DNA of 64,000 nt from Dehalococcoidia bacterium (GCA_963663235.2 CAXXNO010000012.1:320001-384000); one strand, 5' to 3'; positions 37,336 through 55,221 are shown, numbered from the stretch's first letter. Numbers and translations are program-made. Notes: generated by a model not told the origin, from the sequence alone.

Positions 37336-37364
37336 TTGACAACCCGCGCTTCGCGTGTCACACT
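37336..37364 (+). promoter_or_regulatory. Putative sigma70 promoter for the terminase genes
   Basis: TTGACA-17-CACACT with a TG extension, plus a TGACA/TGTCA inverted repeat. Confidence 0.45.
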
Positions 37365-37371
37365 GGACCCC

Positions 37372-38082
37372 TTGGACAGAGCGCATGTTCTCACAGATGG
37401 CCTGCCCGACAAACGCCCCGGCTCCCCTTCGCCCAGCGGAAGAGCCCGTGGTGAGATTGTCGAACCCGCCCGGCCCGTCCTTCGCGGAGCGGAAGGACCC
37501 GACCCGGCCATCGCCGTCCGCCTCGATCAGGTCGAGTCCCTCCACCACCGCGGCTGGAGTCACCGCCGCATCGCCGCCGACCTCGCCGTCTCCGAGCGCA
37601 CCGTCCGCCGCGACCTCCGCCGCCTCGAGGCCCTCTGGCTGGACCGCCTCGCCCAACGCGTCGCCCACGAGCGCGCCCACTCCATCGGCGTCTACCGCGA
37701 GGTCCAGTCCCTCATGTGGAAGGTGATCGACCGTATGTCCGACGCCGACGACCACAAGTCCATCGCCGCCGCCGCCCGCACCATCGTCGCCGCCGCCCGC
37801 GACGGCAAATCCTCCGTCCGCGACCTCTTCGCGGAGTTCACCGACGCCGAGCTCGACGGCACCGACGACCCCTTCGCTGCTCTCGCCCAGGGCGACGAAA
37901 ACTCCCCCTCCCACGCCGCCCTCGACTTCGACGACGATCCGGACAGCGAAGAGCCCGTCCTGAGCGAAGCCCGCACTGAGCTAAGTCGAAGGGTCGAAGG
38001 GCCTGAAACCCCTGCAGATCCCGACGCTTTCAGCGATCCCGACCCTGTCCGCACCCCTGACCGCTCCCCGTCCCAAGCGTGA
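37372..38082 (+). CDS. HTH protein, putative terminase small subunit (start uncertain)
   Basis: GWSHRRIAADLAVSERTVRRDL; GTGA overlap with terL; in-frame palindromic repeat at 37955-38001. Confidence 0.6.
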   Translation: MDRAHVLTDGLPDKRPGSPSPSGRARGEIVEPARPVLRGAEGPDPAIAVRLDQVESLHHRGWSHRRIAADLAVSERTVRRDLRRLEALWLDRLAQRVAHERAHSIGVYREVQSLMWKVIDRMSDADDHKSIAAAARTIVAAARDGKSSVRDLFAEFTDAELDGTDDPFAALAQGDENSPSHAALDFDDDPDSEEPVLSEARTELSRRVEGPETPADPDAFSDPDPVRTPDRSPSQA

Positions 38083-39461
38083 CCATCCCTGTCCAATCCG
38101 GTCCGGCCGGACAGCGCCCCCACCGCCTCATCCTCGCCCGCCGCTGGCGCCGCGACCCCGTCGCCTTCGCCCGAGAGGCGCTCGATGTGGATCTCTGGGA
38201 CACCCAGCAGGCCATCGCCCGCGCCGTCCGCGACCATCCCCGCGTCGCCTGTCGCTCCTGCCACGCCGCCGGCAAGACCTTCCTCGCCGCCGCCGTCGTG
38301 CTCTGGTTCCTCTACACCCGCCCCGGCGCCCAGGTGCTCACCACCGCCTCCACCTTCCGCCAGGTCCGCTACGTCCTCTGGCGCACCATCCAAAAGCTCT
38401 TCCACGGTGCCAAGAGCCACCTCCAGGGCGATCTCTTCGAAACCGAACTCCGCCTCGGCCCCAACTGGTACGCCCTCGGCCTCAGCACAGACAACCCCGA
38501 GCGCTTCCAGGGCTTCCACGCCCCCCACGTCCTGGTCCTGGTCGATGAGCCCGGCGCCGTCCCGCCACCCGTCTTTGCCGCCATCGAAGGCGTCCTCGCC
38601 TCCGGCTACACCCGCCTGCTGATGATCGGCAACCCCACCCAATCCAGCGGCCCCTTCTACGACGCCTTCCACAACGATGCCGCCGAGTACCGCACCTTCT
38701 GCATCAGCGCCTTCGACACCCCCAACCTGCGCGAGGGCCACACCGTCCGCCCCTACCTCGTCGCCCCCGATTGGGTCGACCAACGTCGCCGCCTCTGGGG
38801 CGAAGATTCCGACCTCTACCGCTCCCGCGTCCTCGCCGAGTTCCCCCGCGCCGCCGCCGGCCAACTCTTCTCCCTCGCCCTCCTCGACGCCGCCCTCGTC
38901 GACGCCCCACCCGGCATGAGCCGGGTGGCACTAGGAATTGACGTCGCCCGCTTCGGCTCCGACGCCACCGCCCTAAGCCGCATCGAAGACGGCGGCCTCC
39001 GCCACCAGCAGCTCCTCCACGGCCTCGACACCATGGCGGTCACCGGCCATGTCGCCGCCGCCCTCGCGCAGCGGCCCGACCTCCTCCTCGCCGTCGACGA
39101 CACCGGGGTCGGCGGCGGCGTCACCGACCGCCTGCGCGAGCAGGGCTGGGAGCCGCTCGCCGTCAACTTCGGCGCCGCGGCCTCCGAGCGGGCCTACTAC
39201 GCCAACCGCGGCAGCGAGATCTACGCCCGCCTGGCCGCCGCCCTGCGCGACGGCCGCCTCGCCATCGACGCCGCCCTCCCCACCCGCGACACCCTCTTCG
39301 GCCAGCTCGCCCAGGTGCGCGTCGAATACCGCAGCGACGGCCGGCAGCGCGTGCGCAAGCGCGGCCCCGCCGACGCGCAGCCCAGCCCAGACCTCGCCGA
39401 CTCACTGGCCCTCGCTTGGGCCGCCTACGAAGAAGGCACGCAAGGAGCAGGAGTATGGTGA
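38079..39461 (+). CDS. terL: Terminase large subunit
   Basis: DPVAF, RSCHAAGKT (Walker A), VLVDE (Walker B), IGNPT, nuclease GIDVARFGSD and SPDLADSLAL. Confidence 0.9.
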   Translation: MTIPVQSGPAGQRPHRLILARRWRRDPVAFAREALDVDLWDTQQAIARAVRDHPRVACRSCHAAGKTFLAAAVVLWFLYTRPGAQVLTTASTFRQVRYVLWRTIQKLFHGAKSHLQGDLFETELRLGPNWYALGLSTDNPERFQGFHAPHVLVLVDEPGAVPPPVFAAIEGVLASGYTRLLMIGNPTQSSGPFYDAFHNDAAEYRTFCISAFDTPNLREGHTVRPYLVAPDWVDQRRRLWGEDSDLYRSRVLAEFPRAAAGQLFSLALLDAALVDAPPGMSRVALGIDVARFGSDATALSRIEDGGLRHQQLLHGLDTMAVTGHVAAALAQRPDLLLAVDDTGVGGGVTDRLREQGWEPLAVNFGAAASERAYYANRGSEIYARLAAALRDGRLAIDAALPTRDTLFGQLAQVRVEYRSDGRQRVRKRGPADAQPSPDLADSLALAWAAYEEGTQGAGVW

Positions 39462-39730
39462 CCGATCACACCGCCGCCACTTCCGTTCGTCCTGAGCCTG
39501 TCGAAGGGCGAACCATCACCCCACCCGCGCAGCCCCTCGACCGCCCCATCTGCCCCCGCTGCCGCAAGCCCGCCGGCCTCCTGCTCGAGCGGCCCGCCCC
39601 CGCCGACTACAACCCGGTATTTCGCTGTAATGGGCGACGAGGCGGATGTGGATACCTCTGGAGTCCGAAGCAGGTCCCGCACCATCCACCCCGCGTCTCC
39701 GGGCGCGGCCCCGCAACCGCGGACGGCTAA
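39455..39730 (+). CDS. Small zinc-ribbon protein with an in-frame repeat
   Basis: CPRC..C......C; AGGAG RBS; overlaps the terL stop; SVRPEPVEGRT derives from the repeat. Confidence 0.5.
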   Translation: MVTDHTAATSVRPEPVEGRTITPPAQPLDRPICPRCRKPAGLLLERPAPADYNPVFRCNGRRGGCGYLWSPKQVPHHPPRVSGRGPATADG

Positions 39731-39760
39731 CGGGCAGCGCCGCGATCTGCGAAGAGAAAC

Positions 39761-40930
39761 CTAGGCGTGGGCGCTCTCCGCCGTCGGCGCCTCTACCAGT
39801 CGCAGCAACTCCCGCGCCACGTACAACCGCGGCCAAGAGTCCGGCACCGTCTCGACGATCCCCGCATCCACCAGCCGCTCCAAGATCCGGCGGGCCCCGG
39901 CGTTGCTCAGCCCCAGCCGCGACGCCGTCCCCGGCGCCGATGCGAACGGCCGCACGAACAATTCGTCCAGCAACTGCATCGCGTTCGCCGACTCCCGACG
40001 CTCCTGCAGCCGTTCACGATACCGCTCGTACACCTCCCGCACCCCGCGCGACCGCGCCAGCGCGTCCTTCGCCTGCTCGGCCACGCCCTCAAGGAAGAAG
40101 CGCAGCCACGGCGTCCAGTCGCCCGTCGCGCTCACGCTGAGCAGATGGTCGTAGTACGCCTGCCGCCGCCGCTCGAAGTACGCGCTGAGGTACAGCAACG
40201 GTGTCGTCAAGACCCCCTTCGCGATCAAGTACAGCGTGATCAATGCTCGCCCGATGCGACCGTTGCCGTCCTCGAACGGATGGATCGCCTCGAACTGGTA
40301 GTGCATCAGCGCGCACGCCACCAGCGGCGGCAGCCGCTCCGCCTCGTTCACAAAACGTTCCCAGTCGCTCATCAACGCTGGCAACTCCGTGTGTGGCGCC
40401 GGCACGAACCGCGCATTTTGGATCGGCGTCCCCTCGGGCGCGATCCACACCTGATGGGGCCGCCATTCGCCCGGCCTTTTCTCCTCCCCACGCACGCCCC
40501 GCAGCAACTCCGCGTGCATCTCGCGCACCAGCCGGTTGCAGATCGGCAGGCTCTCCAGCAACTCCTGACCCCGCTCGACCGCCCGCACGTAGTTCGCCAC
40601 CTCCCGCGCGTCACCCTGATCCTTCCGCTCCCCCGACGCCTCAAACAGATACAGGTCGGACAGCGACGCCTGCGTCCCCTCGATCCGCGACGACAGCACC
40701 GCCTCCCGGTGCAGGAACGGCCGGATGAGCAGGTGCGGGTTCACCAGCGTCTCCCCTACCCCCGACAGCATCGCCACCGCCCGCGACGCCTCGTCCAGCG
40801 GCAGGATCAATTCGCGGTCGATCTCCAGATCCTGGGGGAGAGGGGCCGGCACGAAAGCCTGCTGCCCCTCGACCGTCGGGACCAACCGTCCAACAGGGCT
40901 ATCTCGGAATTGCGCAGCGTCCACGGTCAA
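39761..40930 (-). CDS. Fic family protein
   Basis: HYQFEAIHPFEDGNGRIGR, EAVLSSRIEGT and a C-terminal HTH-like region. Confidence 0.93.
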   Translation of the reverse strand: MTVDAAQFRDSPVGRLVPTVEGQQAFVPAPLPQDLEIDRELILPLDEASRAVAMLSGVGETLVNPHLLIRPFLHREAVLSSRIEGTQASLSDLYLFEASGERKDQGDAREVANYVRAVERGQELLESLPICNRLVREMHAELLRGVRGEEKRPGEWRPHQVWIAPEGTPIQNARFVPAPHTELPALMSDWERFVNEAERLPPLVACALMHYQFEAIHPFEDGNGRIGRALITLYLIAKGVLTTPLLYLSAYFERRRQAYYDHLLSVSATGDWTPWLRFFLEGVAEQAKDALARSRGVREVYERYRERLQERRESANAMQLLDELFVRPFASAPGTASRLGLSNAGARRILERLVDAGIVETVPDSWPRLYVARELLRLVEAPTAESAHA

Positions 40931-41148: not shown

Positions 41149-42678
41149 ATGCCCATGCCGCTCCTCGAGACGGGCAGCCTCGCGCTCATCCCCTCTTGGC
41201 AGGTGGGCGTCGAGCAGTACCCCGCGGTCGACTTCCCCAAACTCGCCCGCGAGGGCTACCGGCAGAACGAGGTCGTCTACGCCTGCATCCGGGAGATCGC
41301 CACCACCGCCGCGGAGGTCCGCCTCCGGCTCCAGGACCGGGACGGCGCTCCCCTCCTCGACCACCCCCTCCAGCGCCTCCTCGAGCATCCCAACCCCCAG
41401 CAGTCCGCCTTCGAGCTCTGGGAAAGCCTCCTCACCGATCTCCAGGTCTTTGGCAACGCCTTCCTCTTCAAGGAGCACGACCCCGTCGTCTCTCTGGACC
41501 CGGACCGCGGCTTCGACGCGCTGGCGCCCAACGCTTCCGTGGGGAGCATCTGGAAGCTCCGGCCCGACCGCATCACCATCGTCCCCGGCGACCGTCGCCT
41601 CGTCGACGCCTACATCCACCGCGTCGGCGAGCGCGAGACCCGCCTCGACCCCGCCGACGTCATCCACTTCCGGCTCAGCGATCCGCTCAGCGACCTCTGG
41701 GGCCTCTCCCCCCTCGAGGTCGCCGCCCGCCAGATCGACATCGACACCGAGGCCTCCAAGTTCATCGACGCCTTCTTCCGCAACGCCGCCGTCCCCTTCG
41801 GCCTGATCAAGCTCAAGCGCACCCTCCGCGGCGGCGAAGACGAGGCCCGCCGCATCGGCCGGCGCTGGAGCGACCGCTTCCGCGGCCTCCTCGGCCGCTT
41901 CCAGGTCGGCGTCCTCGATGCCGACGCGGAGTTCCAGCGCATCGGCCTCACGCAGGAGGAGATGGCCTTCCCCGAGATCCGCGCCCACACCGAGGCGCGC
42001 ATCTGCGCCGCCTTCCGCGTGCCGCCCATCCTCGTCGGCGTCAAGGTCGGCCTGGACCGCGCCACCTACAGCAATATGGCCGAAGCCCGGCGCCTCTTCT
42101 GGCAAAACACCATGCTCGCCCTCTACCGGCGCGTCGAGAGCAAGCTCGATGCCGACCTCGTCCCCGCCTTCGCCCGGCCCGGCGACTCCCTGTGCGTCCG
42201 CTTCGACTTCAGCGACGTCGCCGCCCTGCGCGAGTCGCGCGAGAGCCTGGAGCGCTCCGCCATCGCCGGGCTGCGCGCCGGGGCGCTCACCATCAACGAC
42301 GCCCGCCGCCGCTTCGGCTTGGAGCCCCTCCCCGACGGTGACGCGCTCTTCCACTCCGTTCGTTCTGAGCCCGTCGAAGGACGAACGGAGTGGAAGAGCG
42401 CGGCCTTCCGCTCCGGCCGGAGACCCTCGCCCCTCGCAACGGAGGACGGCCGTGACCCGCATCACCGGCTACGCCGCCGTCTTCGGTCGCGCCGACAGCC
42501 AGGCCGACCGCATCGCCCCCGGCGCTTTCCTCGCCTCCCTCGCCCGACACGCCGGCCGCGTGCCGCTGCTCTGGCAGCACGACATGGCCGAGCCCATCGG
42601 CCGCCTCACCACCATGCGCGAGGACGACATCGGCCTCTGGTTCGACGCCGACCTGTCCGGCAGCCGCCGTGCCCGTGA
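41149..42678 (+). CDS. Portal protein, HK97 family (homology ends near 42350; the ORF runs on into the protease gene)
   Basis: VVYACIREIA, HPLQRLLEHPNP, GNAF, LRPDRI, DVIHFR, GLSPL, ICAAFRVPPILVG, TYSN and TINDARRRFGLEPLPDGD. Confidence 0.92.
   Translation: MPMPLLETGSLALIPSWQVGVEQYPAVDFPKLAREGYRQNEVVYACIREIATTAAEVRLRLQDRDGAPLLDHPLQRLLEHPNPQQSAFELWESLLTDLQVFGNAFLFKEHDPVVSLDPDRGFDALAPNASVGSIWKLRPDRITIVPGDRRLVDAYIHRVGERETRLDPADVIHFRLSDPLSDLWGLSPLEVAARQIDIDTEASKFIDAFFRNAAVPFGLIKLKRTLRGGEDEARRIGRRWSDRFRGLLGRFQVGVLDADAEFQRIGLTQEEMAFPEIRAHTEARICAAFRVPPILVGVKVGLDRATYSNMAEARRLFWQNTMLALYRRVESKLDADLVPAFARPGDSLCVRFDFSDVAALRESRESLERSAIAGLRAGALTINDARRRFGLEPLPDGDALFHSVRSEPVEGRTEWKSAAFRSGRRPSPLATEDGRDPHHRLRRRLRSRRQPGRPHRPRRFPRLPRPTRRPRAAALAARHGRAHRPPHHHARGRHRPLVRRRPVRQPPCP
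42351..42393 (+). repeat. Palindromic repeat family A hairpin
   Basis: ccactccgttcgt-tctgagcccgtcgaagg-acgaacggagtgg. Confidence 0.85.
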
Positions 42679-42949
42679 CGCCGCCGCCCTTCTCCAGGCC
42701 GGTGCGCTGCGCGAGTGCAGCATCGGCTTCCTCCCCCGCCGCATCGCCTTCGAGCGGCGCGGACAGGAGCGCGTTCGCGTCCTGCAACAGATCGATCTCA
42801 TCGAGATCAGCCTGGTAACTCTCGCGGCCAACCCATTGGCCCGCGTGATCAGCGTCGATGGCGCCTCGCTCGGGCCCGGACCGCCCATTGGCACGAGCGC
42901 ATCCATATGGCGCCGACGGCTCGCCGCCGTCGCCCCCACCCGCGATTAG
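42452..42949 (+). CDS. HK97-family prohead protease
   Basis: ITGYAAVF..DRIAPGAF..PLLWQHD..PIG..CSIGF..LIEISLVT..ANP; GGAGG RBS. Confidence 0.92.
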   Translation: MTRITGYAAVFGRADSQADRIAPGAFLASLARHAGRVPLLWQHDMAEPIGRLTTMREDDIGLWFDADLSGSRRARDAAALLQAGALRECSIGFLPRRIAFERRGQERVRVLQQIDLIEISLVTLAANPLARVISVDGASLGPGPPIGTSASIWRRRLAAVAPTRD

Positions 42950-42966: not shown

Positions 42967-44229
42967 TTGCCTACGCTCAATGCGCTACGCGACTAAGCCC
43001 GCAACACGCTGACCGAAGCTCGCGGGCTCTTGGAAACCCACAACGGAGCCGAGACCTCCCTCCCGCCCGAGACCGCCGCCCGTGTCGATGCGCTGATCGC
43101 GCAGGGACGCGAGGAGTGGCAGGCCTATGAGGCCGCCCTGGCCGAGCGCGAACGGCGCTACCAACTCGGCGAGCTGGAGCACGACCTGCAACGCGCGCCC
43201 GCCACCTGGACCGACCCCAACGCCGGCGCCGCGCCCGCCCCCACCGCCGGCCGCGGCGACACGGACGCCATCTATCGCAAGGCGTTCGAGCGCTACATCC
43301 ACCACGGCGAACGCTCCGTGCTGGCCCTCGGCGCCCCCTACATCAAGGCGCTCACCGAGGGCACCGACAGCGAGGGCGGCCACCTGGTGCCCATCGACTG
43401 GCAGGCGCAGATCTTGCAGGCCGTCGGCGCCCGCGCCGGCCTGCGCCGCTTCGTCACCGCCATCCCCACCGGCCGCGACGCCATCGAGTGGCCCACCATC
43501 GAGGGCGCCGATGACATCCACGCCAGCGCGGTGCGCCGCACCTGGGTCGATGAGCAGCCCGCCGAAGGCGCCGCCGACACCGAGCCCACCTTCGGCGCGA
43601 TCCGCATCCCCGTGCACACGGCCATGCTCACCACCAAGGCCAGCCGCAACCTGGTCGAGGACAGCGCCGTCCCCTTCACCACCATCCTCACCAACCTCTT
43701 CGCCGACGAGGTCCGCCTCAGCGACGAAGAGGCGTTCCTCACCGGCGACGGCGTCGCCAAGCCGCTGGGTCTCCTCTCGACCACCGACATCCCCACGGTG
43801 AACAGCGGCAACGCCGCCCTGGTCACCGCCGATGGCCTCCTGGACCTCTTCTACGGCGTCCCCGCCCAGTACCGCGACAACGCCATCTTCGTCATGACCA
43901 GCGCCACTGAGGACGCGGTCCGCAAGCTCAAGGACTCCAACAACCAGTACCTCTGGATCGGCGGCTTCGCCGCCGCCCCGGAGACGCTGCTGGGCCGCCA
44001 GGTGCTCAGCTCGGAGTTCATGCCCGCCGTCGCCGCCAACGCCACTCCCATCGCCTTCGGCGACTTCAGCCGCTACGTCGTGGCGGACCGCGTGGGCTTC
44101 TCCATCCAGCGCATCGACGGCGACCAGCAACTCGCCGAGAAGAACCAGATCGGCTTCGTGGGCCGGCAGCGCGTCGGCGGCCGCGTGGTGCAGTCGCGCG
44201 CCTTCCGCTTCCAGAAGATCGCCGTCTAG
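42967..44229 (+). CDS. Major capsid protein, HK97 family; in-frame TAA at codon 10 (42994-42996)
   Basis: GTDSEGGHLVP, WVDE, EEAFLTGDGVAKPLG, KLKDSNNQYLW, LLGRQV and AFGDF. The AAGGAG RBS precedes the TTG at 42967; the ORF reopens at 43030. Confidence 0.93.
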
Positions 44230-45406: not shown

Positions 45407-45742
45407 GTGGCCCGAGTCACTGTACCCCTGCAGACCCTGGACCCGGAGGATTCCGTGGTCCTCAGCTACACCGCCGCCGACGCGACCAACGATCACGCCT
45501 TCACCAACACCGGCCGCGTGCTTTTGCTCGTGAAAAACGGCGGCGGTTCCAGCGTCACCGTGACCATCGTCTCCACGCCCGACGCCCGCGGCCGCACCGG
45601 CGACGAAGTGCGCGCGGTCGCCGCCGCCACCGACGCCCTCTTCGGCCCCTTCCCGCGACAGGGCTGGAACCAGTCCGACGAGTCCGTCCACGTCGATCTC
45701 AGCGCCGATACCAGCGTGCAGCTGGCGGCGATCGTGATCTAG
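45407..45742 (+). CDS. Small virion-associated beta protein
   Basis: NTGRVLLLVKNGGGSSVTVTI..LFGPFP; within the neck gene block. Confidence 0.5.
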   Translation: MARVTVPLQTLDPEDSVVLSYTAADATNDHAFTNTGRVLLLVKNGGGSSVTVTIVSTPDARGRTGDEVRAVAAATDALFGPFPRQGWNQSDESVHVDLSADTSVQLAAIVI

Positions 45743-45759
45743 GAAAGCTGAGGCGGAGC

Positions 45760-46095
45760 GTGATCGGTGGGTTGGTTCATCGCTGTACGGTCTCCCGGCC
45801 GCTGGACGGGCCGGTTGACGCCTACGGCCGCCCCGCGCCCGCGGGCTACGCCGCGGAGGCCCGATCCCTCCGCTGCCGCTTCATCGCCGGCAACGACCGC
45901 GATGCCCCGCGCCTCCTCTTCCCCGCCGACGCCGATGTCGCCGCGGGCGATCGGATCGGCGCCGTTGAAGACGGCGCGGGACGGGTGGTGGACGCCGGAC
46001 CGTTCGCCGTGCTCGCAGTGACAACCGGATCGGGACGGGCGCAGGTCGCCTATCGCAGCGCGCTGCTGCAACGCATCGCACCGGAGAAAGCATGA
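45760..46095 (+). CDS. Putative head-closure protein
   Basis: HRCTVSR..DAYGRP..ADVAAGDRI; position in the operon. Confidence 0.6.
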   Translation: MIGGLVHRCTVSRPLDGPVDAYGRPAPAGYAAEARSLRCRFIAGNDRDAPRLLFPADADVAAGDRIGAVEDGAGRVVDAGPFAVLAVTTGSGRAQVAYRSALLQRIAPEKA

Positions 46096-46448: not shown

Positions 46449-46867
46449 CGCCCCTCACCGGCTCAGAAACTCCGTTCGTCCTGAGCCTCAAGTCTGGCGA
46501 AGGGCCTGCAGAGCGGCAGGCAGCCCCGCCCGATCGCCATACGCCCCCTCTCCATCGCTTGCCGATGGAGAGGGGGCCGGGAGGTGAGGTTCCCTCTCCT
46601 GCCCCGTTCGCCCTGAGCGAAGTCGAAGGGCGAACCGCTGACACCCGTGCCCTTCCCCCTCACACTCCCCCTCTCCATCGCTTGCCGATGGAGAGGGGGC
46701 CGGGGGGTGAGGTTCCCTCTCCTGCCCCGTTCGTCCTGAGCGGAGTCGAAGGAGAACGGGGCAGCCCAGCTGTCCTCCTTGCGCCTGTCGAAGGAGGGCC
46801 GGGGGGTGAGGTTCCTCTCCACGCCGCCGAACCGACCGAAGACACGACAAGCCGAGACCGCCGATGA
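46445..46867 (+). repeat. Composite array of family A/B repeats forming an open 140-aa frame
   Basis: Two HTPPLHRLPMERGPGGEVPSPAPF units; ATGA overlaps with both neighbouring genes. Confidence 0.8.
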
Positions 46868-47282
46868 CCCTCCCCGCCGACCCCGTGGCCGCGGTGCTGA
46901 CCTACCTCCGCACCGACCCCGACTTGCTCGCGTTGGTGGGCGATCGCATCTACGGCGCCGGCCGGCCGGAGAGCGGCCCGGCCTCGCTGCCCGCGCCGGC
47001 GCTCACGCTGACGCCGGTGGGGGGGCCGGCGCACCGCGACCTCCCGCTGGCTGACGTGGAGATGGAGATCCGCTGCTGGGCGGCCTGGGCGTCGACGGCG
47101 CCGTTCGGGCCGTGGCCATCTGGCGCGCCATCCATCGCGCCCTCAACGTCAGCGATCGCGTGGCCGCGAACGCCCGCTTGCTCTGGGCGGTGGAGGTCAG
47201 CGGCCCCGCCCTGCTGCGCGATCCCGATACCCAAGAACCCTTCGTGCGCTGCGGCGTCCGCGCCGCCACCGCCGACGACTGA
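46864..47282 (+). CDS. Putative tail terminator, frameshift near 47085
   Basis: LLALVGDRIY..EIRCW. The alternative frame gives AVAIWRAIHRAL..EVSGPALLRDPDT and ends at TGA 47280-47282. Confidence 0.65.
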
Positions 47283-47299
47283 GTGAAAGGAGCTGCATC

Positions 47300-47857
47300 G
47301 TGCCGGTCAAGCTGCTGGTCGGATCCGGCCGACTCTATCTCAACGCGGAAGCGGCGGCCATGCCCGCCATCGACGCCGACCCCGTCGCCGCCGGCTGGAC
47401 CGACCTCGGCGCCATCGCCGGTGGCGTCACGGTCGAGCGGGAGCAAACGCTGGAGGAACACTTCGTCGACCACGAGACCGGCCCGGTCGACGTGAGCCGC
47501 ACCGCCGAGGCGCTGATCATCGAGACCAGCCTGGCGGAGCCCACGCTCGCCAACCTCGGGCGCGTCCTCAATGACCTCACCCCCACCTCTGCGGCAGGCC
47601 CGCCCGCCACCGAGCGCCTCGGCAGCTACCGCGGCGCGACCGTCGCTCGGCACGCCTTGCTCTTCCGCGCCGGATCGCCGGAAGGCGCGGGCAAGACCGG
47701 CCAGACCTACGTTGCCCGCGGCTACTTCGCCGGCGACGTCGGCCTCGCTCACCGCAAAGACGAGCAGACCCTCGTCCCCGTCGAGTTCCGCGCCCTGGTG
47801 CACGAAGCCGCTGCCACTTCCTCCGAACGCTTCGGAGTCACCGTCTATGAAACCTAA
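47300..47857 (+). CDS. Major tail (tube) protein
   Basis: LLVGSGRLY..WTDLGAIAGGVTV..VD..IETSLAEPTLANL..PVEFRAL; AAGGAG RBS. Confidence 0.8.
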   Translation: MPVKLLVGSGRLYLNAEAAAMPAIDADPVAAGWTDLGAIAGGVTVEREQTLEEHFVDHETGPVDVSRTAEALIIETSLAEPTLANLGRVLNDLTPTSAAGPPATERLGSYRGATVARHALLFRAGSPEGAGKTGQTYVARGYFAGDVGLAHRKDEQTLVPVEFRALVHEAAATSSERFGVTVYET

Positions 47858-47993
47858 CGCTTCCCAATCCAGGGCGCGGAACCCGGCCCGCGACGCTCGC
47901 CGAGCGGGCCAAAACAACCCAGCCGCGCCCTCGTGCACGAAGCCGCCGCCACCTCCTCCGAACGCTTCGGAGTCACCGTCTATGAAACCTAAC
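47798..47993 (+). repeat. ~60-bp direct duplication of the tail-tube 3' end
   Basis: gtgcacgaagccg..ccgaacgcttcggagtcaccgtctatgaaacctaac at 47798-47858 and 47933-47993. Confidence 0.85.
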
Positions 47994-48827
47994 CAGCCTC
48001 CCCCTCCCCCGCCCCCTCTCCATCGCTCGCCGATGGAGAGGGGGCCGGGGGGTGAGGTTCCCACTGAGCTCGTCGAAGGAGGGCCGGGGGGTGAGGTTCC
48101 CTCTCCTGCCCCGTTCGTCCCGAGCGAAGCCCAAGGGCCTGAAGAACGGCAAGCAACCCCGCCCGATCCCCACACTCCCCCTCTCCATCGCTCGCCGATG
48201 GAGAGGGGGCCGGGGAGTGAGGTTCCCACTGAGCTTGTCGAACGAGCGCCGGGCGGTGAGGTCCCCTCTCCTACTCCGTTCGTCCTGAGCGAAGCCCACG
48301 GGCCTGAAGAACGGCAAGCGACCCCGCCCGATCCCAACACTCCCCCTCTCCATCGCTCGCCGATGGAGAGGGGGCCGGGGGGTGAGGTTCCCACTGAGCT
48401 TGTCGAACTAGCGCCGAGCGGTGAGGTCCTTTCCGCCGCCACCCCCCTCCAGCGCCTCCTCGACCTCGACGCCGGCCGCCTGCCCCCGCTCGTCGTCCGC
48501 GTCGACGGCCGCGACGTGCCCCTGCGCCTGCCGGAGAGCCTCTCCCTGGCCGACACGCTCCGCCTCGGCGATCTGCTCCGCGCTCTCGCCGACCCAGCCG
48601 CCACGCCCCAACGCTTCGACGCCGCGGCGGCGGAAGTCGTCGCCCTGGTCGCGCCCCCTCTCGGCCCGGACGGCCCCACGCCCCTGCCGCCGGGGCAGGC
48701 CCGCCGCCTCGTGGCCTTTTACGCCGCGCACCTCGCCCGCGCCGCCGAGGCGCTGAGCGGAGCGGACGGCATGCTCCCTTTTGCGATGGCGCAGCCGCTG
48801 GCCGCGTCTGCGCCCGGATCGCCATGA
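47847..48827 (+). CDS. Tail assembly chaperone (gpG-like), N-terminal half repeat-derived (start uncertain)
   Basis: Lies between the tube and tape measure genes. Folded-looking part starts near 48445 (LLDLD..VRVDGRDVPLRLPESLS). C CCT TTT slippery site near the end. Confidence 0.6.
   Translation: MKPNASQSRARNPARDARRAGQNNPAAPSCTKPPPPPPNASESPSMKPNQPPPPPPPLHRSPMERGPGGEVPTELVEGGPGGEVPSPAPFVPSEAQGPEERQATPPDPHTPPLHRSPMERGPGSEVPTELVERAPGGEVPSPTPFVLSEAHGPEERQATPPDPNTPPLHRSPMERGPGGEVPTELVELAPSGEVLSAATPLQRLLDLDAGRLPPLVVRVDGRDVPLRLPESLSLADTLRLGDLLRALADPAATPQRFDAAAAEVVALVAPPLGPDGPTPLPPGQARRLVAFYAAHLARAAEALSGADGMLPFAMAQPLAASAPGSP
48000..48430 (+). repeat. Tandem ~165-bp composite A/B repeat units (about 2.5 copies)
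   Basis: cccctctccatcgctcgccgatggagagggggccgggg at about 48013, 48178 and 48343. Confidence 0.9.
48776..48782 (+). other. Programmed -1 ribosomal frameshift site (G/GT chaperone)
   Basis: In-frame X XXY YYZ heptamer C CCT TTT; the -1 frame is open into 48824-49099. Confidence 0.7.
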
Positions 48828-49099
48828 CGTACCACCTCTCACTGCGCACGCAACTGGCGATGCCGATGGCGGAGTGGGCCTGCTACGCCACCCAACTCGC
48901 GCCCCTGGAGGCGGAGCGATCCCTCCGCGACGCGGAAGCGGCGGCGCTGCCCTGGATGGGTTCCGCCGATCGGCGGCGCGCCGTCGGCCGTCTCCACCGC
49001 CTCGCCTTCGCCGACCTCGATGCCGCGGCCCCGCTTCCCATCGACGGGCTCGCGCTTCGTCATCAAGCGGCCCAGCCCTCCAGGAAAGGTCATCGCTGA
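48824..49099 (+). CDS. Tail chaperone extension (gpT-like)
   Basis: In the -1 frame of the upstream gene; its stop overlaps the tape measure ATG. Confidence 0.6.
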   Translation: MTYHLSLRTQLAMPMAEWACYATQLAPLEAERSLRDAEAAALPWMGSADRRRAVGRLHRLAFADLDAAAPLPIDGLALRHQAAQPSRKGHR

Positions 49100-49734
49100 T
49101 GGTCGAAATCGCCGATGCGGTCCTCACCCTCAGCACCGACGACGGCCCGCTGCAGGCCGGTCTGGCCCAGGCGGAGACCTCCATCCGGGATTCCTTGGCG
49201 CGCATGGAAGCCGTCTTGCGCGATGGCGCCCTCAACACCGGCGAGGAGCAGGTGGCCCTGGCCCAGGCCGCGACGGCGCTCGTGGTCCTCACCATCTCGA
49301 TGGCCGGCATCCCCCCGGCGGCGACGACCGCCTCCATCTCGCTCACCAATCTGAGCCGGGCCGCATCGGACTTCGGCGCTGCCGCGACTGTCGCCGCGAC
49401 GCAAGCCCGCCTCGCCGCCCTCACCATCACCGCCGCCTTCGCGCGGGTGCTCGCCAGCGCCAGGGCAGCGCTCGCCGCGCTCAATGCGGCGGCGGCGGCA
49501 CGCGGCGCTGCCGCTCCCGGCCCGGCGACGTCAACCGGTGTGGTCCCGCCCCTCGCCGCGCGCGCCCTACCCCCCGGACGCGCGGCCGCCGCGGCCCGAC
49601 CCCCCCTCGGTCCGCTGGTCGGAACGCTCAACGTCACCGTCGATCGTGAACATCCCCGTGCCATCCAGGCGGGCGTCGAGCGCGCCTTGATCGAGCTCGC
49701 TGAACGCGCCGAGCTCGCGGGAGCGCTGGACTGA
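49099..49734 (+). CDS. Very short tape-measure-like protein (211 aa)
   Basis: MVEIADAVLTLSTD N-terminus, Ala-rich helical body; lies between the chaperones and Dit with TGATG coupling at both ends. Confidence 0.65.
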   Translation: MVEIADAVLTLSTDDGPLQAGLAQAETSIRDSLARMEAVLRDGALNTGEEQVALAQAATALVVLTISMAGIPPAATTASISLTNLSRAASDFGAAATVAATQARLAALTITAAFARVLASARAALAALNAAAAARGAAAPGPATSTGVVPPLAARALPPGRAAAAARPPLGPLVGTLNVTVDREHPRAIQAGVERALIELAERAELAGALD

Positions 49735-50648
49735 TGACCATCGACTGGACCGCCGCCGACGGCGTCACCGTCAGCCTGGACCGGGACCCCCGCTGGGCGC
49801 TCTTGAGCATAAGCGGGCACGGCGCCCCCGATACCGACCTCCTCACGACCGGCAACCCCGATCGCGATGAGCGCCTCCCGCTCCACGCCGTCGCGCAGCC
49901 GCGACTGCTCTCCCTGACCCTCCGCATCGAAGGCGAATCCCTCACCGCCTACGAAGCCAACCGCGCCGCGCTGGCCGCGGCCTTCGCCCCCTGGCGCGAT
50001 GCGGGCACGCGCAGCCGCCCGGGCGCTCTGGCCCTCACCCTCGCCGACGGCCGCCGCCGCGCGCTGCGCGCCGTGCCCCGGCAGGGGCTGGCCTGGGCGT
50101 CGGGGCGACAGCGCGGCACCCGCACCGTCGAGTCGGTGCTGCTGGAGGCACCCGATCCATTTTGGTACGACCCCACGCCCCGCACCGGCGCGGCCACCAT
50201 CCAGAGCCCCGGCAACCTCCGCTTCGATGCCGTCACCGAGTTGGGCTTCCCCGCCGGCTTCGGCAGCGACCGCCCCAGCGCGGTCGTCACGGTGACCCAC
50301 GAAGGCAGCGTCCGTAGCTTCCCGCTCTTCACCGTGCCCGGCCCCTCCATCAATCCCAGCTTTCGCCTTGGCGCCTCCGGTTTCTCCGTGGCCTTCTCCC
50401 TGACCGTTCCTCAGGGGCTGACGCTCCAGGTCACCTGTGGGGCGCAGCCGGACGGCTCCGTCGACGCCCCCAAGGCCGTCCTCATCGATGACCTCGGCGG
50501 CGAGTCCAACGTCCTCGGGGCGCTCCGCAGCGGTTCCCGCTTCTGGGCGCTCGGGCCCGGTCCGAATACCGTCGTGCTCACCCAGGACACCCCCGCGGTC
50601 GGCACGGTCTTCAACTATCAGTTCTTCCAACGCGAAGTGGCGGTGTAA
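49734..50648 (+). CDS. Distal tail (Dit-like) protein
   Basis: PRLLSL, LEAPDPFWYD, EGSVRSFP..VPGP..NP and FWALGPGPNTV. Confidence 0.8.
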   Translation: MTIDWTAADGVTVSLDRDPRWALLSISGHGAPDTDLLTTGNPDRDERLPLHAVAQPRLLSLTLRIEGESLTAYEANRAALAAAFAPWRDAGTRSRPGALALTLADGRRRALRAVPRQGLAWASGRQRGTRTVESVLLEAPDPFWYDPTPRTGAATIQSPGNLRFDAVTELGFPAGFGSDRPSAVVTVTHEGSVRSFPLFTVPGPSINPSFRLGASGFSVAFSLTVPQGLTLQVTCGAQPDGSVDAPKAVLIDDLGGESNVLGALRSGSRFWALGPGPNTVVLTQDTPAVGTVFNYQFFQREVAV

Positions 50649-50651
50649 CCC

Positions 50652-51674
50652 ATGGCTGAAGAGAGTTTCCCCTTCCAGGAACTGGCGGACGGCGACCGCA
50701 CCGTGAGCGCGGCGATGTTCGCCAAACACATCGGCATGATCCGCTCGCGCGGCGTGATCAAGTCGGTGGACAACGGCCTGGCCGTCAGTCAGTCCTCACC
50801 GGCGGCGATGAGCGTCGATCTGGACACCGGCGCGGCCTTCGCCGGAGCCACCCAGTTGCGCGCTTACCGCAACACGCTCGCACGCACCATCACCATCGCC
50901 GCCGCCGACCCCACCGACCCTCGCCACGACCTCGTCGTCCTGGACATGAACACGGACACGGGCCCGCCCGACACCCGACGCGTCACCACGATGATCGTCC
51001 AGGGCACGCCCGACCCCTCCCCCTCCGACCCCGCCCTCGTCCAGACCGAGACGCACTATCAACTCGCCCTCGCCCGCGTGCTCGTCGGCGCCGCCGTCGC
51101 CAGCATCGTCGACGCCAACATCACCGACCTCCGCACCTACTCCACCCCGCTCAACGCACCAACCGGCGGCCTCACCCGGGAAGGCGGCAACACCACCGAG
51201 GCGACCACGACCAGCACAAGCGCGGTGGACCTCGTCTCGATCACCAGCCTGAGCGTTGCCACAGGCTCTCCCATCGACGCACGCGGACTTGCCCGCAAGT
51301 CTGGTGGGGCCGCCTCGAATGGCGGCATCGGCCTAAAGATCAACGCGACTGTGGTGTCAGAAGCCAACGCGACAGCAGGTCATGGAGGGGCGGTCTGGAC
51401 AGGAAGCACCAACGCCGACCGAGCGGAAGCAGGGGCCTTCCATGTTGTCGGGTTTGTCGCCCAGACGAATTACGCCTTTACCCCGGCGATCTCGACGTTC
51501 AGCGCTGAGGACACCGTGCCGCAACTCATCTACGCGCAGGTTGATTCTCTTGGCTCAACGGCCGAGTGGCCCGTCGCGACGCTCACCTCGTTCATCTTCC
51601 GCGCGATCAGCGGCAACGCATCGGTCACTGTGGGACTCGATGAAGTCCATCTCTACAGCCTGGCGGTGAGTTAG
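50652..51674 (+). CDS. Baseplate/tail fibre structural protein
   Basis: MSVDLDTGAA..IAAADPTDPRHDLVVL..YQLALARVLV..ITDLR, then a beta-rich C-terminus. Confidence 0.7.
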   Translation: MAEESFPFQELADGDRTVSAAMFAKHIGMIRSRGVIKSVDNGLAVSQSSPAAMSVDLDTGAAFAGATQLRAYRNTLARTITIAAADPTDPRHDLVVLDMNTDTGPPDTRRVTTMIVQGTPDPSPSDPALVQTETHYQLALARVLVGAAVASIVDANITDLRTYSTPLNAPTGGLTREGGNTTEATTTSTSAVDLVSITSLSVATGSPIDARGLARKSGGAASNGGIGLKINATVVSEANATAGHGGAVWTGSTNADRAEAGAFHVVGFVAQTNYAFTPAISTFSAEDTVPQLIYAQVDSLGSTAEWPVATLTSFIFRAISGNASVTVGLDEVHLYSLAVS

Positions 51675-51676
51675 CG

Positions 51677-52147: not shown

Positions 52148-52190
52148 GCGTGCCCACCCCCGAACAGGCCATCATCAGAGAGAGTCAGCC

Positions 52191-52466: not shown

Positions 52467-52517
52467 CGAGAAGCGTGACCGCCGTTCTTCAATCTCACGA
52501 CGCCTAGGTCGCCAGCG

Positions 52518-53645
52518 ATGCCGAACCACGAGATCGTGCTCTTCCACCGCAGTCCCGCCCAGGAGATTCGGGCCATCCCGCCCTTCACCGCCCTGGACTG
52601 GACCCGGCGCTTCCGCGGCAGCGGCGCCTTCCGCGTCGAGATGCCGCTGGAAGCGGGCGCCGCCATCGCCGGCGGCGACGTCCTCGACATCGAGCTCGAC
52701 GGCCGCGTCGATCTCTCCGGCATCGTCCAGCGTCGCACCATCGTCTTCCGCCCCCAGGAGGCGCCCGCCTGGCAATTGGAGGGAATGGATCTGACCTGGT
52801 GGCTGCACCAGCGCGCCATCGTGCCGCCCGGCGGCTCGTCCCACGACGAGCAGATCGGGGTGCCCGCCGAGGACGCCATCCGCCACTACATCGATGCCCA
52901 CCTCCTCAACCCCACCGACGGCGCCCGCAAGATCCCGGTCTCCGCGGCGCTCGAGACGGCCCACAGCCCTCGCCTCGGACCCAACGTCACGATCCGCGCT
53001 CGCTACGCCAAGCTGGCCAAGGAGGTGGACCGCATCGCCGCCCTCGCCGACCTCGGCTACGCCGCCCTCCGCGACGACGCCGGCTCCATCAGCTTCCGCG
53101 TCCTCGCCCAGCGCGACCGCTCGGCCTCTTCGCCCCAGCCGGTGATCTTCTCCCCCAACCTTGGCACGGCAGAGGAGATGACCTTTGTCGAAGACACGGT
53201 CGGCAGCCGCAACGCCGTCTACGTCCTCGGCAGCGGCAGCGGCAGCGGCCGCCTCGTGGAGACCGTGCTCGACGCCGCCGACGTCACCGCCCGCTGGCGC
53301 CGCGAGCTCGCCCTCGACGCCCGCGACGCCACCACCAGCGCCGCCGCCATCGACGCCGGACAGGCCGAGCTCGCCCGTCAGGCCGTCGCCCGCCTGCGGC
53401 TGCACGCCCTCCCGGCCGCCCTCGGCCCGCTGGCCTATCGTCTCGACTGGGATGTCGGCGACCTCGTCACGCTGGACATCCCCGATCTCGCGCTGCGCCT
53501 CGATCGCCGCATCGAGGAAGTGCGCTGCTCCGTTGACGACCGCGAGCCGCTCCGGATCGACCTAGCCTTCGGCGCCCCGGCGCCGGACGCCACCAGCGCG
53601 CTGCGCCGCCTCGATGAGCGCACTGCGCCGGGACGCTTCACTTGA
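52518..53645 (+). CDS. Siphovirus Gp37-like minor tail/hub protein
   Basis: FTALDWTRRFRGSGAF, VIFSPNLG, NAVYVLGSG.G..R, RRELALDARD and YRLDWDVGDLVT..RIEEV. Confidence 0.78.
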   Translation: MPNHEIVLFHRSPAQEIRAIPPFTALDWTRRFRGSGAFRVEMPLEAGAAIAGGDVLDIELDGRVDLSGIVQRRTIVFRPQEAPAWQLEGMDLTWWLHQRAIVPPGGSSHDEQIGVPAEDAIRHYIDAHLLNPTDGARKIPVSAALETAHSPRLGPNVTIRARYAKLAKEVDRIAALADLGYAALRDDAGSISFRVLAQRDRSASSPQPVIFSPNLGTAEEMTFVEDTVGSRNAVYVLGSGSGSGRLVETVLDAADVTARWRRELALDARDATTSAAAIDAGQAELARQAVARLRLHALPAALGPLAYRLDWDVGDLVTLDIPDLALRLDRRIEEVRCSVDDREPLRIDLAFGAPAPDATSALRRLDERTAPGRFT

Positions 53646-54067
53646 GCGCCCTGGACGCGGCCGTCCTGACCACCGCCTGCGCCGGGCTGATCACCGCCCT
53701 GGCCCAGTGGTTTCGCCTGTTCGGGCCCCGCCGCAACGGGCGCAAGGCGGTGATCCGCTATTTCGAGGCGCGCCTCGCCGCCACCGAGGCCGCCCTGGCC
53801 GATTGCCTGGAGCGGACCTCTCCCCGTCACCGCACCCAACCCGGCCGCTGGCGCCGGCCCAACCCGTTCGTCCAGAACCCTGTCCTGAGCAGAGTCGAAG
53901 GGCCTGTCCTGAGCTCCCTCGAAGGGCCTGTCCTGAGCACAGTCGAAGGGCTCCGGCCTCTTCCCCCTCTCCATCGCTTGCGACGGAGAGGGGGCCAGGG
54001 GGTGAGGTTCATCTTGAGCATGCACACAACCCGCGCAACGAAAGGAAACTGCGACCATGAACCGTGA
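53642..54067 (+). CDS. Holin-like membrane protein with a repeat-derived C-terminus
   Basis: N-terminal TM then coiled coil; TTGA overlap; three PVLSxxEG units encoded by repeats. Confidence 0.45.
   Translation: MSALDAAVLTTACAGLITALAQWFRLFGPRRNGRKAVIRYFEARLAATEAALADCLERTSPRHRTQPGRWRRPNPFVQNPVLSRVEGPVLSSLEGPVLSTVEGLRPLPPLHRLRRRGGQGVRFILSMHTTRATKGNCDHEP
53879..54008 (+). repeat. Three tandem 24-bp family A units plus a family B unit
   Basis: cctgtcctgagc-NNNN-tcgaaggg at 53879, 53903 and 53927. Confidence 0.9.
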
Positions 54068-54296
54068 CTTCCCCTGGGGGTTGCCGCCCGGCTCCGTGCG
54101 GGCGCTGCTGGCCGCCATCGTCCTCGCCGTCTGGGCCGCGCTCGATCTGGGCGCCGGGCCGGACGCCGCGGCGCCCGATGCGGTCCGCGCCAGGGCCGCG
54201 GCCGTCGCCGCCGGCTACGGCCTGATGCGCACCCGGGGCGAGAGCGACGCCGCCCGCGCCGCCACACCGTACAGGGGCGAGCACGATGGCCGCTGA
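54057..54296 (+). CDS. Small membrane protein, holin-like
   Basis: PWGLPPGSVRALLAAIVL; upstream of the lysin. Confidence 0.5.
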   Translation: MNRDFPWGLPPGSVRALLAAIVLAVWAALDLGAGPDAAAPDAVRARAAAVAAGYGLMRTRGESDAARAATPYRGEHDGR

Positions 54297-54304
54297 CCCG
54301 CCGT

Positions 54305-54600
54305 CCGTCCGTCCTGAGCCTGTCCTGAGCGAAGTCGAAGGGCCTGCCCTGAGCTCCCTCGAAAGGCTGCCGGCCTCTTCCCCCTCTCCGTCCTTCCCGG
54401 GAGGGAAGGATGGAGAGGGGGCCAGGGGGTGAGGTTCGTTCTGACCTCCGCAAAGGGGCTCCCCTGAGCGAAGTCGAAGGGCCGGCCGAAGGACCTGCCA
54501 AACGGCAAGCGGCCCCGCCCGACTCCCACACTCCCCCTCTCCATCGCTCGCCGATGGAGAGGGGCCGGGGGGTGAGGTTCCCCTGAGCAGTGTCGAAGCA
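54305..54600 (+). repeat. Composite family A/B repeat array
   Basis: gtcctgagcgaagtcgaaggg and cccctctcc..ggagagggg..ggggtgagg units. Confidence 0.88.
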
Positions 54601-54657
54601 CGAACGGCTCATCGCGGCCCGCCCGGCGCCGATCCCGTCCGTCGCTGCCCCCCCCTG

Positions 54658-55221
54658 ATGCGCGAGCTCCGCGACGCCTGGCCTGTCCCCCGGGAGCGGC
54701 CGCCCCTCAGTCTCTGGGCCGCCCTCATCGACACCGAGAGCGGCGGCCGCCCCGACGTCATCAGCGTCGCGGGCGCGGTGGGACTCGGGCAGGTCATGCC
54801 CTCCGACTTCGCCGGCTACTCCGCCCGGCTCCGCCGCATGTTCCGCGACCGCCCCACCACCGCGGCCCTCCTCGACCCGCGCACCAATCTGGAGTGGTCC
54901 TTGCGCATCCTCGTCACCCTGGGCTACCGCCGCTGCCGCTCCTGGCCCGCCGCCCTCATGGCCTACTTCACCGGCCGCTGCGACGCCCCCACCGCCACCG
55001 ACGCCACGGGGACCAGCGGCGCCCACTACGTCCGCCTCATCCTCGCCCGCCAACAGCGCTACCGTGACCTCGACGCGCCCCCGCCGCCGCCCACGGCCGG
55101 CGATTCAGACGTGAGTCGCCGTGTCGATGCCCTTACTGACGACCTGCAACAGCTCCGCGCCCGCGTCGCCCAAAACAACGCCCGCATCCGCGGCATCGGG
55201 AGAGCCGCCGTGGACGGTTGA
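54658..55221 (+). CDS. Lytic transglycosylase (SLT) endolysin-like protein
   Basis: ALIDTESGG, GAVGLGQVMP, LLDPRTNL and ALMAY; coiled-coil tail. The start may extend upstream across a C-run indel near 54650. Confidence 0.85.
   Translation: MRELRDAWPVPRERPPLSLWAALIDTESGGRPDVISVAGAVGLGQVMPSDFAGYSARLRRMFRDRPTTAALLDPRTNLEWSLRILVTLGYRRCRSWPAALMAYFTGRCDAPTATDATGTSGAHYVRLILARQQRYRDLDAPPPPPTAGDSDVSRRVDALTDDLQQLRARVAQNNARIRGIGRAAVDG

Follow-up and report, generated by a model that had tools for sequence, protein, structure and literature searches.

A vertically inherited virion gene cluster at one chromosomal site in a Dehalococcoidia family, and its possible relation to gene transfer agents

Between a thioredoxin-like gene and a host gene of unknown family, the genome of a Dehalococcoidia bacterium (GCA_963663235.2) carries some 18 kb of genes for the head, tail and lysis functions of a siphovirus-like particle. 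The cluster lies at positions 37336 to 55221 of a 64,000-nucleotide stretch (CAXXNO010000012.1:320001-384000), which is called the window throughout. A previous interpretation made from the sequence by itself (below, the sequence-only reading) had taken it for a domesticated virion factory resembling a gene transfer agent (GTA). Few GTAs are known, each from a separate phage domestication. In this study, the cluster is compared with its counterparts in the same family of Chloroflexota, with phages and with known domesticated particles. The comparison gives good support to a vertically inherited virion gene cluster under selection in two genera of the family (g6 and g10).

Results and Discussion

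Gene content

Since the genome has about 70% GC and hence long open reading frames (ORFs) in many frames, genes were called by codon-position GC together with a codon model trained on the genome, and names were taken from Pfam and PHROGs. On the plus strand, the cluster runs in the order helix-turn-helix (HTH) protein, large terminase (TerL), portal, S78 protease, HK97-type capsid, neck, tube, a gene in the chaperone position, tape measure candidate, distal tail protein (Dit), hub or fibre protein, Sipho_Gp37-like protein, two small proteins with hydrophobic segments, and SLT lysin (Table 1). The neck genes number five, an HK97 gp10-like gene and a gp17-like tail completion protein included. 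The chromosome holds, in other words, the genes of a complete phage-like particle, i.e. terminase, portal, capsid and tail.

The capsid is 75-80% identical to its orthologs, and the protease is 60% identical to the PF04586 proteins of three relatives (G005, G023 and G009). In TerL, what we take to be the Walker A/B-like motifs and the acidic motifs of the nuclease are invariant in six of six sequences, across three genera. The hub or fibre protein is conserved over its N-terminal ~165 amino acids (aa) and variable in its C-terminal part, with orthologs aligning over residues 1-164 to 1-194 only. Two of the tail genes have been named by position: the one at 48441-48827 is presumably the tail assembly chaperone, and the one at 49099-49734, which stands before Dit, would be the tape measure; its counterparts in genus g10 have 101-133 aa. 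The HTH protein probably starts later than 37336, with homology to relatives beginning near 37519, and its orthologs (153-176 aa) are found immediately upstream of TerL in five relatives.

The gene classes listed by the sequence-only reading are all present, and Pfam and PHROG matches place them where it had put them. Its short tape measure is likewise confirmed, at no more than ~210 aa. Its description of a co-directional ~18-kb set is correct for the larger part; the exceptions are 39761-40930, which is on the minus strand, and the ORF 46445-46867 and the stretch 47986-48480, which are repeat DNA. The composition is indeed host-like, with a GC of 0.706 for the cluster and 0.684 for the genome and with codon-usage scores of 0.23 and 0.28 per codon, and the assignment of the host to Chloroflexota agrees with the closest relatives, which are Dehalococcoidia or Chloroflexota metagenome-assembled genomes.

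Table 1. Genes and repeats of the cluster and its conserved host neighbours, in window positions.
Feature	Position	Strand	Basis and remarks
Thioredoxin-like host gene (Trx)	32133..32921	+	PF14595; conserved left neighbour in relatives
HTH protein, small-terminase position	37336..38082	+	weak HTH matches under Pfam cut-offs
Large terminase TerL	38079..39461	+	phrog_2, 3.6e-39; 65-69% identity to orthologs
SoFic-type Fic defence gene	39761..40930	-	PF13784, PF02661; PADLOC SoFic 3.9e-119, full length
Portal	41149..42678	+	PF04860, 1.1e-68
Prohead serine protease (S78)	42452..42949	+	GTG start, GGAGGA upstream; frame overlaps portal ORF
HK97-type major capsid protein	42967..44229 (open ORF 43030-44229)	+	PF05065, 9.5e-63
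Two conserved head/neck genes	44298-44711, 44872-45390	+	phrog_28483 (first); orthologs 58-73% in all relatives
Neck gene, found in the window only	45407-45742	+	neck-gene set 45407..46448: phrog_16194, phrog_5, PF04883
Neck gene, conserved	45760-46095	+	same neck-gene set
HK97 gp10-like neck gene	46092-46448	+	same neck-gene set
Hairpin repeat copies inside supposed ORF 46445-46867	46538..46815		families D1, D6; ORF without ortholog
Tail completion protein, gp17-like	46864..47286	+	PF11367; frame split near 47079-47103 relative to orthologs
Major tail (tube) protein	47300..47857	+	phrog_2175, phrog_117; 73-77% identity to orthologs
Three tandem 165-nt repeat units, tube-chaperone gap	47986..48480		family D3; relatives have ~74 nt there
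Gene in tail-assembly-chaperone position	48441..48827	+	48-52% identity to 141-142-aa genes at the same place in G023 and G005
Short tape measure candidate	49099..49734	+	48% identity to a 205-aa gene of G005
Distal tail protein Dit	49734..50648	+	phrog_5577, phrog_33; 63-65% identity to orthologs
Tail hub or fibre protein	50652..51674	+	phrog_1220 and others, residues 1-162
Two window-specific ORFs	51677-52147, 52191-52466	+	neither family match nor ortholog
Sipho_Gp37-like minor tail protein	52518..53645	+	PF14594, 2.2e-46; 59-60% identity to orthologs
Two small holin-like proteins	53642..54296	+	hydropathy; one hydrophobic segment each
Further hairpin repeat stretches	53869-54035; 54303-54620 (before SLT gene)
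SLT lytic transglycosylase	54658..55221	+	PF01464, 5.4e-13
Host gene of unknown family (unk55727)	55727..56776	-	synteny; conserved right neighbour, then IMPase and MIPS

Some variation was seen toward the 3' end of the cluster. Just after the fibre gene, within the first window-specific ORF, the stretch 51820-52040 varies in length among populations in public sequencing runs: one contig has 23 nt in place of ~218 nt, and others have ~124 nt extra. The first of the holin-like ORFs is conserved in genus g10 over its N-terminal 70 aa, and its 3' half is repeat DNA (families D9 and D12). In G005 (L008 10024-11692), the pair of small membrane-protein genes after Gp37 is present in three tandem copies. 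The lysin is swapped, as a comparison of the window with L010 11547-12242 shows: SLT in the window, and Amidase_2 at the same place in genera g10, g6 and g4 (G023, G005 and G003).

Chromosomal site and distribution

The family was sampled with 65 species genomes, and the order comprises this family only. A capsid gene was found in nine of them, the window's own included. By genus, it is present in 1 of 1 genome of g1 (the window's own), 1 of 1 of g6, 6 of 7 of g10 and 1 of 3 of g2, and in none of g3 (2 genomes), g4 (1), g5 (3), g7 (37), g8 (9) and g9 (1). G078, a g10 genome, was rejected as a case of cluster loss because it lacks both the capsid gene and that for inositol-phosphate synthase (MIPS), which means that the locus is unassembled.

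Seven relatives (G005, G009, G015, G020, G023, G079 and G080) have the order lux2-Trx, followed by HTH-TerL-(cargo)-portal-protease-major capsid protein-neck-tail-lysis. The host genes unk55727, inositol monophosphatase (IMPase) and MIPS come next wherever the contig reaches that far; G079, whose contig breaks off within the tail genes, gave no Trx match. The same site, with Trx, the cluster and then unk55727-IMPase-MIPS, is occupied in three genera. Identity to the window is 58-78% for the conserved cluster genes, which is comparable to the flanking genes with 47-61%, and 86-88% for MIPS. G079, and only G079, has ~1.3 kb of additional DNA between its capsid gene and the gene that follows (L074 17342-18707).

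In G003, the genome of g4, the same site holds a remnant that begins with the 3' part of a neck gene and continues with the tail genes as far as Gp37, plus an amidase; its Dit is split, and nothing is left of the head module. In two g5 genomes, the interval from Trx to unk55727 is devoid of structural genes. What remains there is a DUF6941 gene and a type IIG restriction-modification (RM) gene, accompanied in one of the two by Fic fragments, and these families are the ones that fill the TerL-portal gap elsewhere. The genera g7 and g8 retain MIPS-IMPase-unk55727 with no trace of the cluster, and in g3 Trx is ~6 kb away in the opposite orientation.

The TerL-portal gap (39461-41149 in the window, and the same gap in L009, L011, L013, L014, L017 and L074) contains variable cargo. 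SoFic, a second Fic-like gene, a type IIG RM enzyme, a toxin-antitoxin pair and DUF6941 (in five relatives) were found in it, and also a glyoxalase, PaREP1, a Peptidase_M78 match and an HTH_3 match; in G080 the gap is nearly empty. This slot holds mostly defence genes, with SoFic as its occupant in the window. Codon-position GC indicates the minus strand as the coding one at 39761-40930, and the plus-strand ORF 39767-41077 was rejected as a gene, being a shadow frame over SoFic.

Co-divergence with the host

A tree of RpoB was constructed for 26 genomes, along with concatenated trees of the head proteins, the tail proteins and the flanking host proteins. The RpoB tree has four lines, namely g2; g1+g5; g4+g6+g10; and the long-branched g3+g7+g8+g9. 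The head, tail and flank trees have one common shape, and for the eight genomes with full clusters all five internal splits of the head and tail trees are shared with RpoB. Patristic distances correlate with those of RpoB with r = 0.98 for the head and 0.96 for the tail, in pairs that are not independent of each other. The RpoB identity between genera is 71-74%. On the branch of the window's genome (G000), the head proteins are not accelerated, as the ratio of head to RpoB path length is 0.86 for G000-G005 compared to ~1.3-1.4 for other pairs. The simplest history would be a single entry that predates the separation of the g1/g5, g2 and g4/g6/g10 lines, with losses afterwards.

Selection

The ratio of nonsynonymous to synonymous substitution rates (dN/dS) was calculated from four species of genus g10. 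Between genera, dS is saturated and uneven (0.33-1.0), and the between-genus ratios were therefore left unused. Within g10, dS is 0.17-0.30 for the cluster and 0.17-0.24 for the flanking host genes, which is taken as equal. Apart from the HTH and chaperone-position genes, to which we return below, dN/dS in the cluster falls between 0.17 and 0.49. For the head it is 0.17 (capsid), 0.22 (protease), 0.24 (portal) and 0.38 (TerL), and for the tail 0.24 (Gp37-like), 0.25 (tube) and 0.44 (Dit), to be compared with 0.10-0.42 for the host flanks.

With G023 as the reference, 19 genes were searched for in-frame stops in six relatives, and none was found. Random change simulated in the same 19 genes at 10-25% per site leads to a mean of 19-41 stops, with 11-15 of the 19 genes affected. 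Vertical inheritance together with purifying selection is what is observed for g6 and g10.

Mobility genes

When the whole genome was searched for recombinases in six frames, 15 matches to PF00589 (tyrosine) and one to PF00239 (serine) were obtained, none of which is in the window. Five relatives (G005, G009, G015, G020 and G023) have 24 PF00589 matches, none within 150 kb of their clusters. We have also considered the 36 variable ORFs of the window and five relatives, where no integrase or replication family is among the 25 of 29 families listed; one Peptidase_M78 and one HTH_3 match were obtained. A tRNA scan of the window and 17 loci gave a single tRNA, which is ~7 kb from Trx in a genome that lacks the cluster; none was found in the window and the other 16 loci. 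No direct repeat brackets the cluster in the 20 largest repeat families, out of at least 60. As judged by family search only, the cluster has no integrase, excision, replication or lysogeny module, and the set that makes up an intact temperate prophage (integrase, repressor, replication genes and attachment repeats) is not present.

The small-terminase position and the distance from phages

The HTH protein has an N-terminal HTH, a long helix and an acidic tail, and its AlphaFold2 model (17-row alignment, pLDDT 74) displays the HTH and the long helix. A Foldseek search with this model gave no match at E <= 0.001. Regulator HTH domains were at the top, and the small terminase of phage G20c was ranked 13 with an E of 0.85, which supports neither side. 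All 17 homologs found are from the same clade, and no name can thus be obtained from relatives. From its position, the protein would be the small terminase.

A single IMG/VR contig, of 9.5 kb, shares the gene order and has 77% capsid identity; the remaining IMG/VR capsids that align over most of their length do not exceed 34% identity, and one 128-aa capsid fragment reaches 42%. In the species-genome collection, the next capsids beyond the clade are 32-39% identical (32-35% over most of the length) and belong to unrelated phyla. A sample of 401 genomes of the class contains 12 genomes outside the family with capsids 25-36% identical, and one 110-aa fragment at 41%. Overall, capsid fragments of 110-185 aa outside the clade are at 39-42%. 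The sequence-only reading had named closest homologs in complete prophages as one of the results that would speak against domestication; what is found is that no complete phage holds a close relative.

The 9.5-kb contig (L080) extends from the portal to the fibre gene, the gp10-like gene included, and its GC of 0.653 is lower than that of the other copies. It is a more divergent copy of the cluster, from a lineage outside the species genomes.

Interpretation

We propose that a phage-derived head-tail cluster entered the chromosome once, between the Trx-like gene and unk55727-IMPase-MIPS, in an ancestor of several genera of one Dehalococcoidia family (Chloroflexota), and that it has since been inherited vertically without genes for integration, excision, replication or lysogeny. 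In g6 and g10, purifying selection maintains the cluster, and DNA-filled, short-tailed siphovirus-like particles are most likely still built there, to be released by its own holin-like and lysin genes. The outcome would be a GTA-like "viriform". The different parts of this proposal are not equally firm. That a recent or active prophage is excluded can be said with good confidence, and on balance we favour a domesticated, particle-forming, vertically inherited element. The formation of particles and the carriage and delivery of host DNA are what the gene content would predict, and a GTA-like function is a tentative assignment that we would sooner doubt than assert. Similarly tentative is the idea of a GTA evolved independently in Chloroflexota, derived from a siphovirus in which an RcGTA-like head was combined with an actinophage-like tail tip. 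Such a GTA would have been at one site since before several genera split, with a slot that collects defence genes.

Several expectations of the sequence-only reading are borne out. The integrase and replication genes and attachment repeats that it had found missing are also missing in the family, recombinase and repeat searches, the agreement with the host tree is seen in the five of five splits shared with RpoB, and dN/dS is below 1 with dS equal to that of the flanks. Broad vertical conservation, on the other hand, is confirmed only in part: the cluster is syntenic in relatives, but it is patchy, reduced to a tail-only remnant in one genus and to cargo in another. Its central claim of a domesticated virion factory or GTA has synteny, congruence, dN/dS and the lack of mobility genes on its side, while the patchiness, the kept HTH and a window copy that may be broken speak against it.

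It is important to consider the observations that weigh against the proposal made here. The capsid is found in only 9 of the 65 species genomes and in none of the 49 genomes of g3, g7, g8 and g9, and the decay in g4 and the loss of structural genes in g5 mean that selection is not universal. The defence cargo could be a reason for the persistence of the locus, though not for the constraint on the capsid gene. In g10, dN/dS is 0.60 for the HTH gene and 1.07 for the chaperone-position gene, the latter with an unsure and poorly delimited gene call. Single frame splits occur in the Dit of G015 and the portal of G020, the only two in the six relatives. According to a review (PMC11841831), the known GTAs have small terminases that are devoid of a DNA-binding domain; here the HTH is kept, and packaging may accordingly take place from a specific site. 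The lineages also differ in the gene at 45407-45742, the gp10-like gene, the lysin (SLT or Amidase_2) and the fibre C-termini, and there has therefore been some exchange with phages. Finally, particles, packaging and transfer are all predictions.

The window's own copy adds further points of this kind. By comparison with its orthologs, the capsid starts at TTG 42967, with AGGAG upstream, but an in-frame TAA at 42994-42996 is codon 10, and the open ORF resumes at TTG 43030. The tail completion gene is in two frames (one to ~47103, the other from 47079), which give two high-scoring segment pairs against both G005 and G023. The portal lacks its usual stop; homology to the orthologs ends near 42453, and the ORF goes on for 230 nt within the protease gene. 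The window was compared with contigs of four public runs, each from a different study, and these contigs span both cluster junctions. In two of the runs the tail completion gene is as in the window, and these two also have a 2-nt insertion after 43050; the two other runs (X7 and X9 for the G) have a G-run after 47077 that is longer by one G, and 7 nt are inserted near 42391. Contig depth and the many "joints" with sides of 20-25 letters reflect repeats and other organisms, and no conclusion was drawn from them.

The rpoB gene of the same assembly (G000:C4:535000-539000) is in four pieces and three frames relative to the RpoB of a relative, corresponding to three frameshifts. As this is an essential gene, indel errors must exist in the assembly, and changes of frame are not to be trusted. 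The frame splits in the window, G015 and G020 may thus be assembly errors, and were dropped as proof of decay. The capsid TAA is a substitution and is more likely real than an error. The window's copy may be newly damaged, and since the G000 head proteins are not accelerated, any inactivation would be recent.

These observations are also the ones that bear on the alternatives. The patchy occurrence (9 of 65), the tail-only remnant of G003 with its split Dit, the cargo-only site of g5, the capsid stop, frame split and repeat insertions of the window, and the defence genes in the TerL-portal gap of most copies are what an old, functionless and slowly decaying prophage would leave behind, its locus surviving by virtue of the defence cargo (SoFic, RM, toxin-antitoxin) or by chance. 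Such a prophage is difficult to reconcile with dN/dS values of 0.17-0.49 in genes whose dS equals the dS of the flanks, with the complete lack of in-frame stops in 19 genes of six relatives where 19-41 would be expected randomly, and with the invariant catalytic motifs of TerL, a constraint that has held while RpoB has come to be only 71-74% identical between genera. Selection on the cargo, moreover, cannot protect adjacent capsid codons, and we consider this explanation unlikely. The vertical descent and the selection are explained equally well by a domesticated particle that serves a purpose other than transfer, such as PBSX-like killing, or lysis and DNA release, with packaging as a by-product or from a specific site. 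The HTH retained in the small-terminase position fits such a particle, and the variable fibre C-termini and the polymorphic stretch 51820-52040 are as expected of surface recognition under diversifying pressure. However, the constraint on terminase, portal and capsid equals that on the tail, and a DNA-filled head therefore appears to matter. We regard a non-transfer use as rather unlikely, although the present evidence fits killing as well as transfer.

A live temperate phage with one preferred site, its integrase and replication genes being located elsewhere or too divergent, is highly improbable. The HTH protein could serve site-specific packaging in such a phage, lysis genes are present, and one IMG/VR contig has the same genes, but that contig is a 9.5-kb fragment with structural genes only. 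Recombinase matches are lacking from the window and from the 150 kb around the clusters of five relatives, and neither an attachment repeat, among the 20 largest repeat families, nor a tRNA was detected at the cluster. In every genome the cluster borders on host genes on both sides; its trees agree with that of the host, and its dS is equal to the dS of the flanking genes.

It is instructive to compare the cluster with known systems. The Rhodobacter capsulatus GTA (RcGTA), with the RcGTA-like clusters of Alphaproteobacteria, and the present element are all head-tail clusters, in the size range of ~15-18 kb, that have no integrase or replication genes, are inherited vertically and have been lost in some lineages. 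The two have in common the order terminase-portal-protease-HK97 capsid-neck-tube-chaperone-short tape measure-distal tail-hub as well as the gp17-like (PF11367) tail completion gene, and the best sequence matches among solved structures are the RcGTA capsid Rcc01687 (5e-38) and portal Rcc01684 (9.5e-30). No solved chain matches TerL, tube, Dit, the Gp37-like protein or the first neck protein. With only about one third of its residues identical, the capsid is no nearer to that of RcGTA than to those of unrelated phages (<=34-36%), and the cluster differs in its actinophage-type distal tail (PF14594), the HTH before TerL, the internal defence slot and the host phylum. Of the whole head-tail gene set of the RcGTA-like family of Alphaproteobacteria, distal tail genes included, only capsid and portal are matched among solved chains. 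The element is thus outside the RcGTA family, which it resembles in layout, head type and mode of inheritance.

PBSX of Bacillus subtilis is a chromosomal particle cluster that is conserved at its locus, does not propagate, has its own lysis genes and builds a contractile tail. With PBSX-like prophages the cluster shares conservation at one locus in related species, the inability to propagate and the possession of lysis genes; however, no sheath gene was found here, the tail is of the tube, tape measure and Dit type, and no comparable regulator was identified. A cryptic prophage would likewise have structural genes without an integrase, moron-type cargo (SoFic, RM) and decay in some lineages, but would differ from what is seen here, namely the same site in three genera (with a remnant in g4), co-divergence with RpoB and dN/dS well below 1. 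The presence and constraint of capsid, portal, protease and TerL set the cluster apart from tailocins. Phage-inducible chromosomal islands have an integrase and a replication/primase module and depend on a helper, and the capsid-forming kind is without tail genes; here there is no integrase or replication family, and the tail module is full. The Caulobacter crescentus GTA (PMC13236601) is a domesticated prophage cluster with NLR-like control of lysis by LypABC, to which the present cluster is similar in being a domesticated prophage cluster and, in the window, in having a STAND NTPase with TPR directly upstream. This STAND/TPR pair is, however, absent from that place in all relatives examined and is a weak defence match.

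A literature search by title and start of abstract, with many subscription journals outside its coverage, found no GTA in Chloroflexota, Chloroflexi or Dehalococcoidia. Within the literature searched, this would be the first GTA for the phylum. If true, it would extend this route of gene exchange to a large uncultured bacterial group, and would be another case in which selection holds a complete virion gene set in the chromosome over the long term. The relatives span several stages, from intact copies via a tail-only remnant to a cargo-only site, and can be used to study retention and loss, and the internal defence slot connects GTAs with defence islands. Should the cluster be merely a long-lived cryptic prophage, its value would be smaller, yet the evidence for selection would still need explaining.

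Flanking genes and repeats

The upstream flank consists of ordinary host genes, namely a luciferase-like monooxygenase, the thioredoxin-like gene, an amidohydrolase and the STAND NTPase with TPR repeats. Downstream are unk55727, glutamate dehydrogenase, a hydrolase, inositol monophosphatase, inositol-phosphate synthase and an acyltransferase. The plus-strand ORF 55298-57778 (826 aa), just outside the cluster, was rejected as a shadow over the minus-strand unk55727 and glutamate dehydrogenase genes.

At 34409-37174, an nSTAND3-like STAND NTPase is followed by TPR repeats that also form DNA repeats of ~120-130 nt (36142-36745), with a lower GC of ~0.655. The two ORFs may be a single NLR-like gene that has been split. 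Among the relatives examined, the STAND/TPR genes and the amidohydrolase are inserted between Trx and the cluster in the window's genome only. The STAND/TPR genes were also considered as regulators of the cluster, but this option was dropped in view of their being window-specific and weakly matching PADLOC defence STAND families.

The genome contains 34 copies of a hairpin repeat, distributed over 6 contigs; the cluster has six of them, all on the plus strand, i.e. in the direction of transcription. No Rfam family reaches its gathering score in 36000-56000. A second repeat of ~30 nt follows TerL (39481-39511) and the first neck gene (44813-44843). In relatives, the places of the repeats are taken by short spacers. 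The repeats may be elements similar to repetitive extragenic palindromes (REP) or miniature inverted-repeat transposable elements (MITE), or structures at transcript ends.

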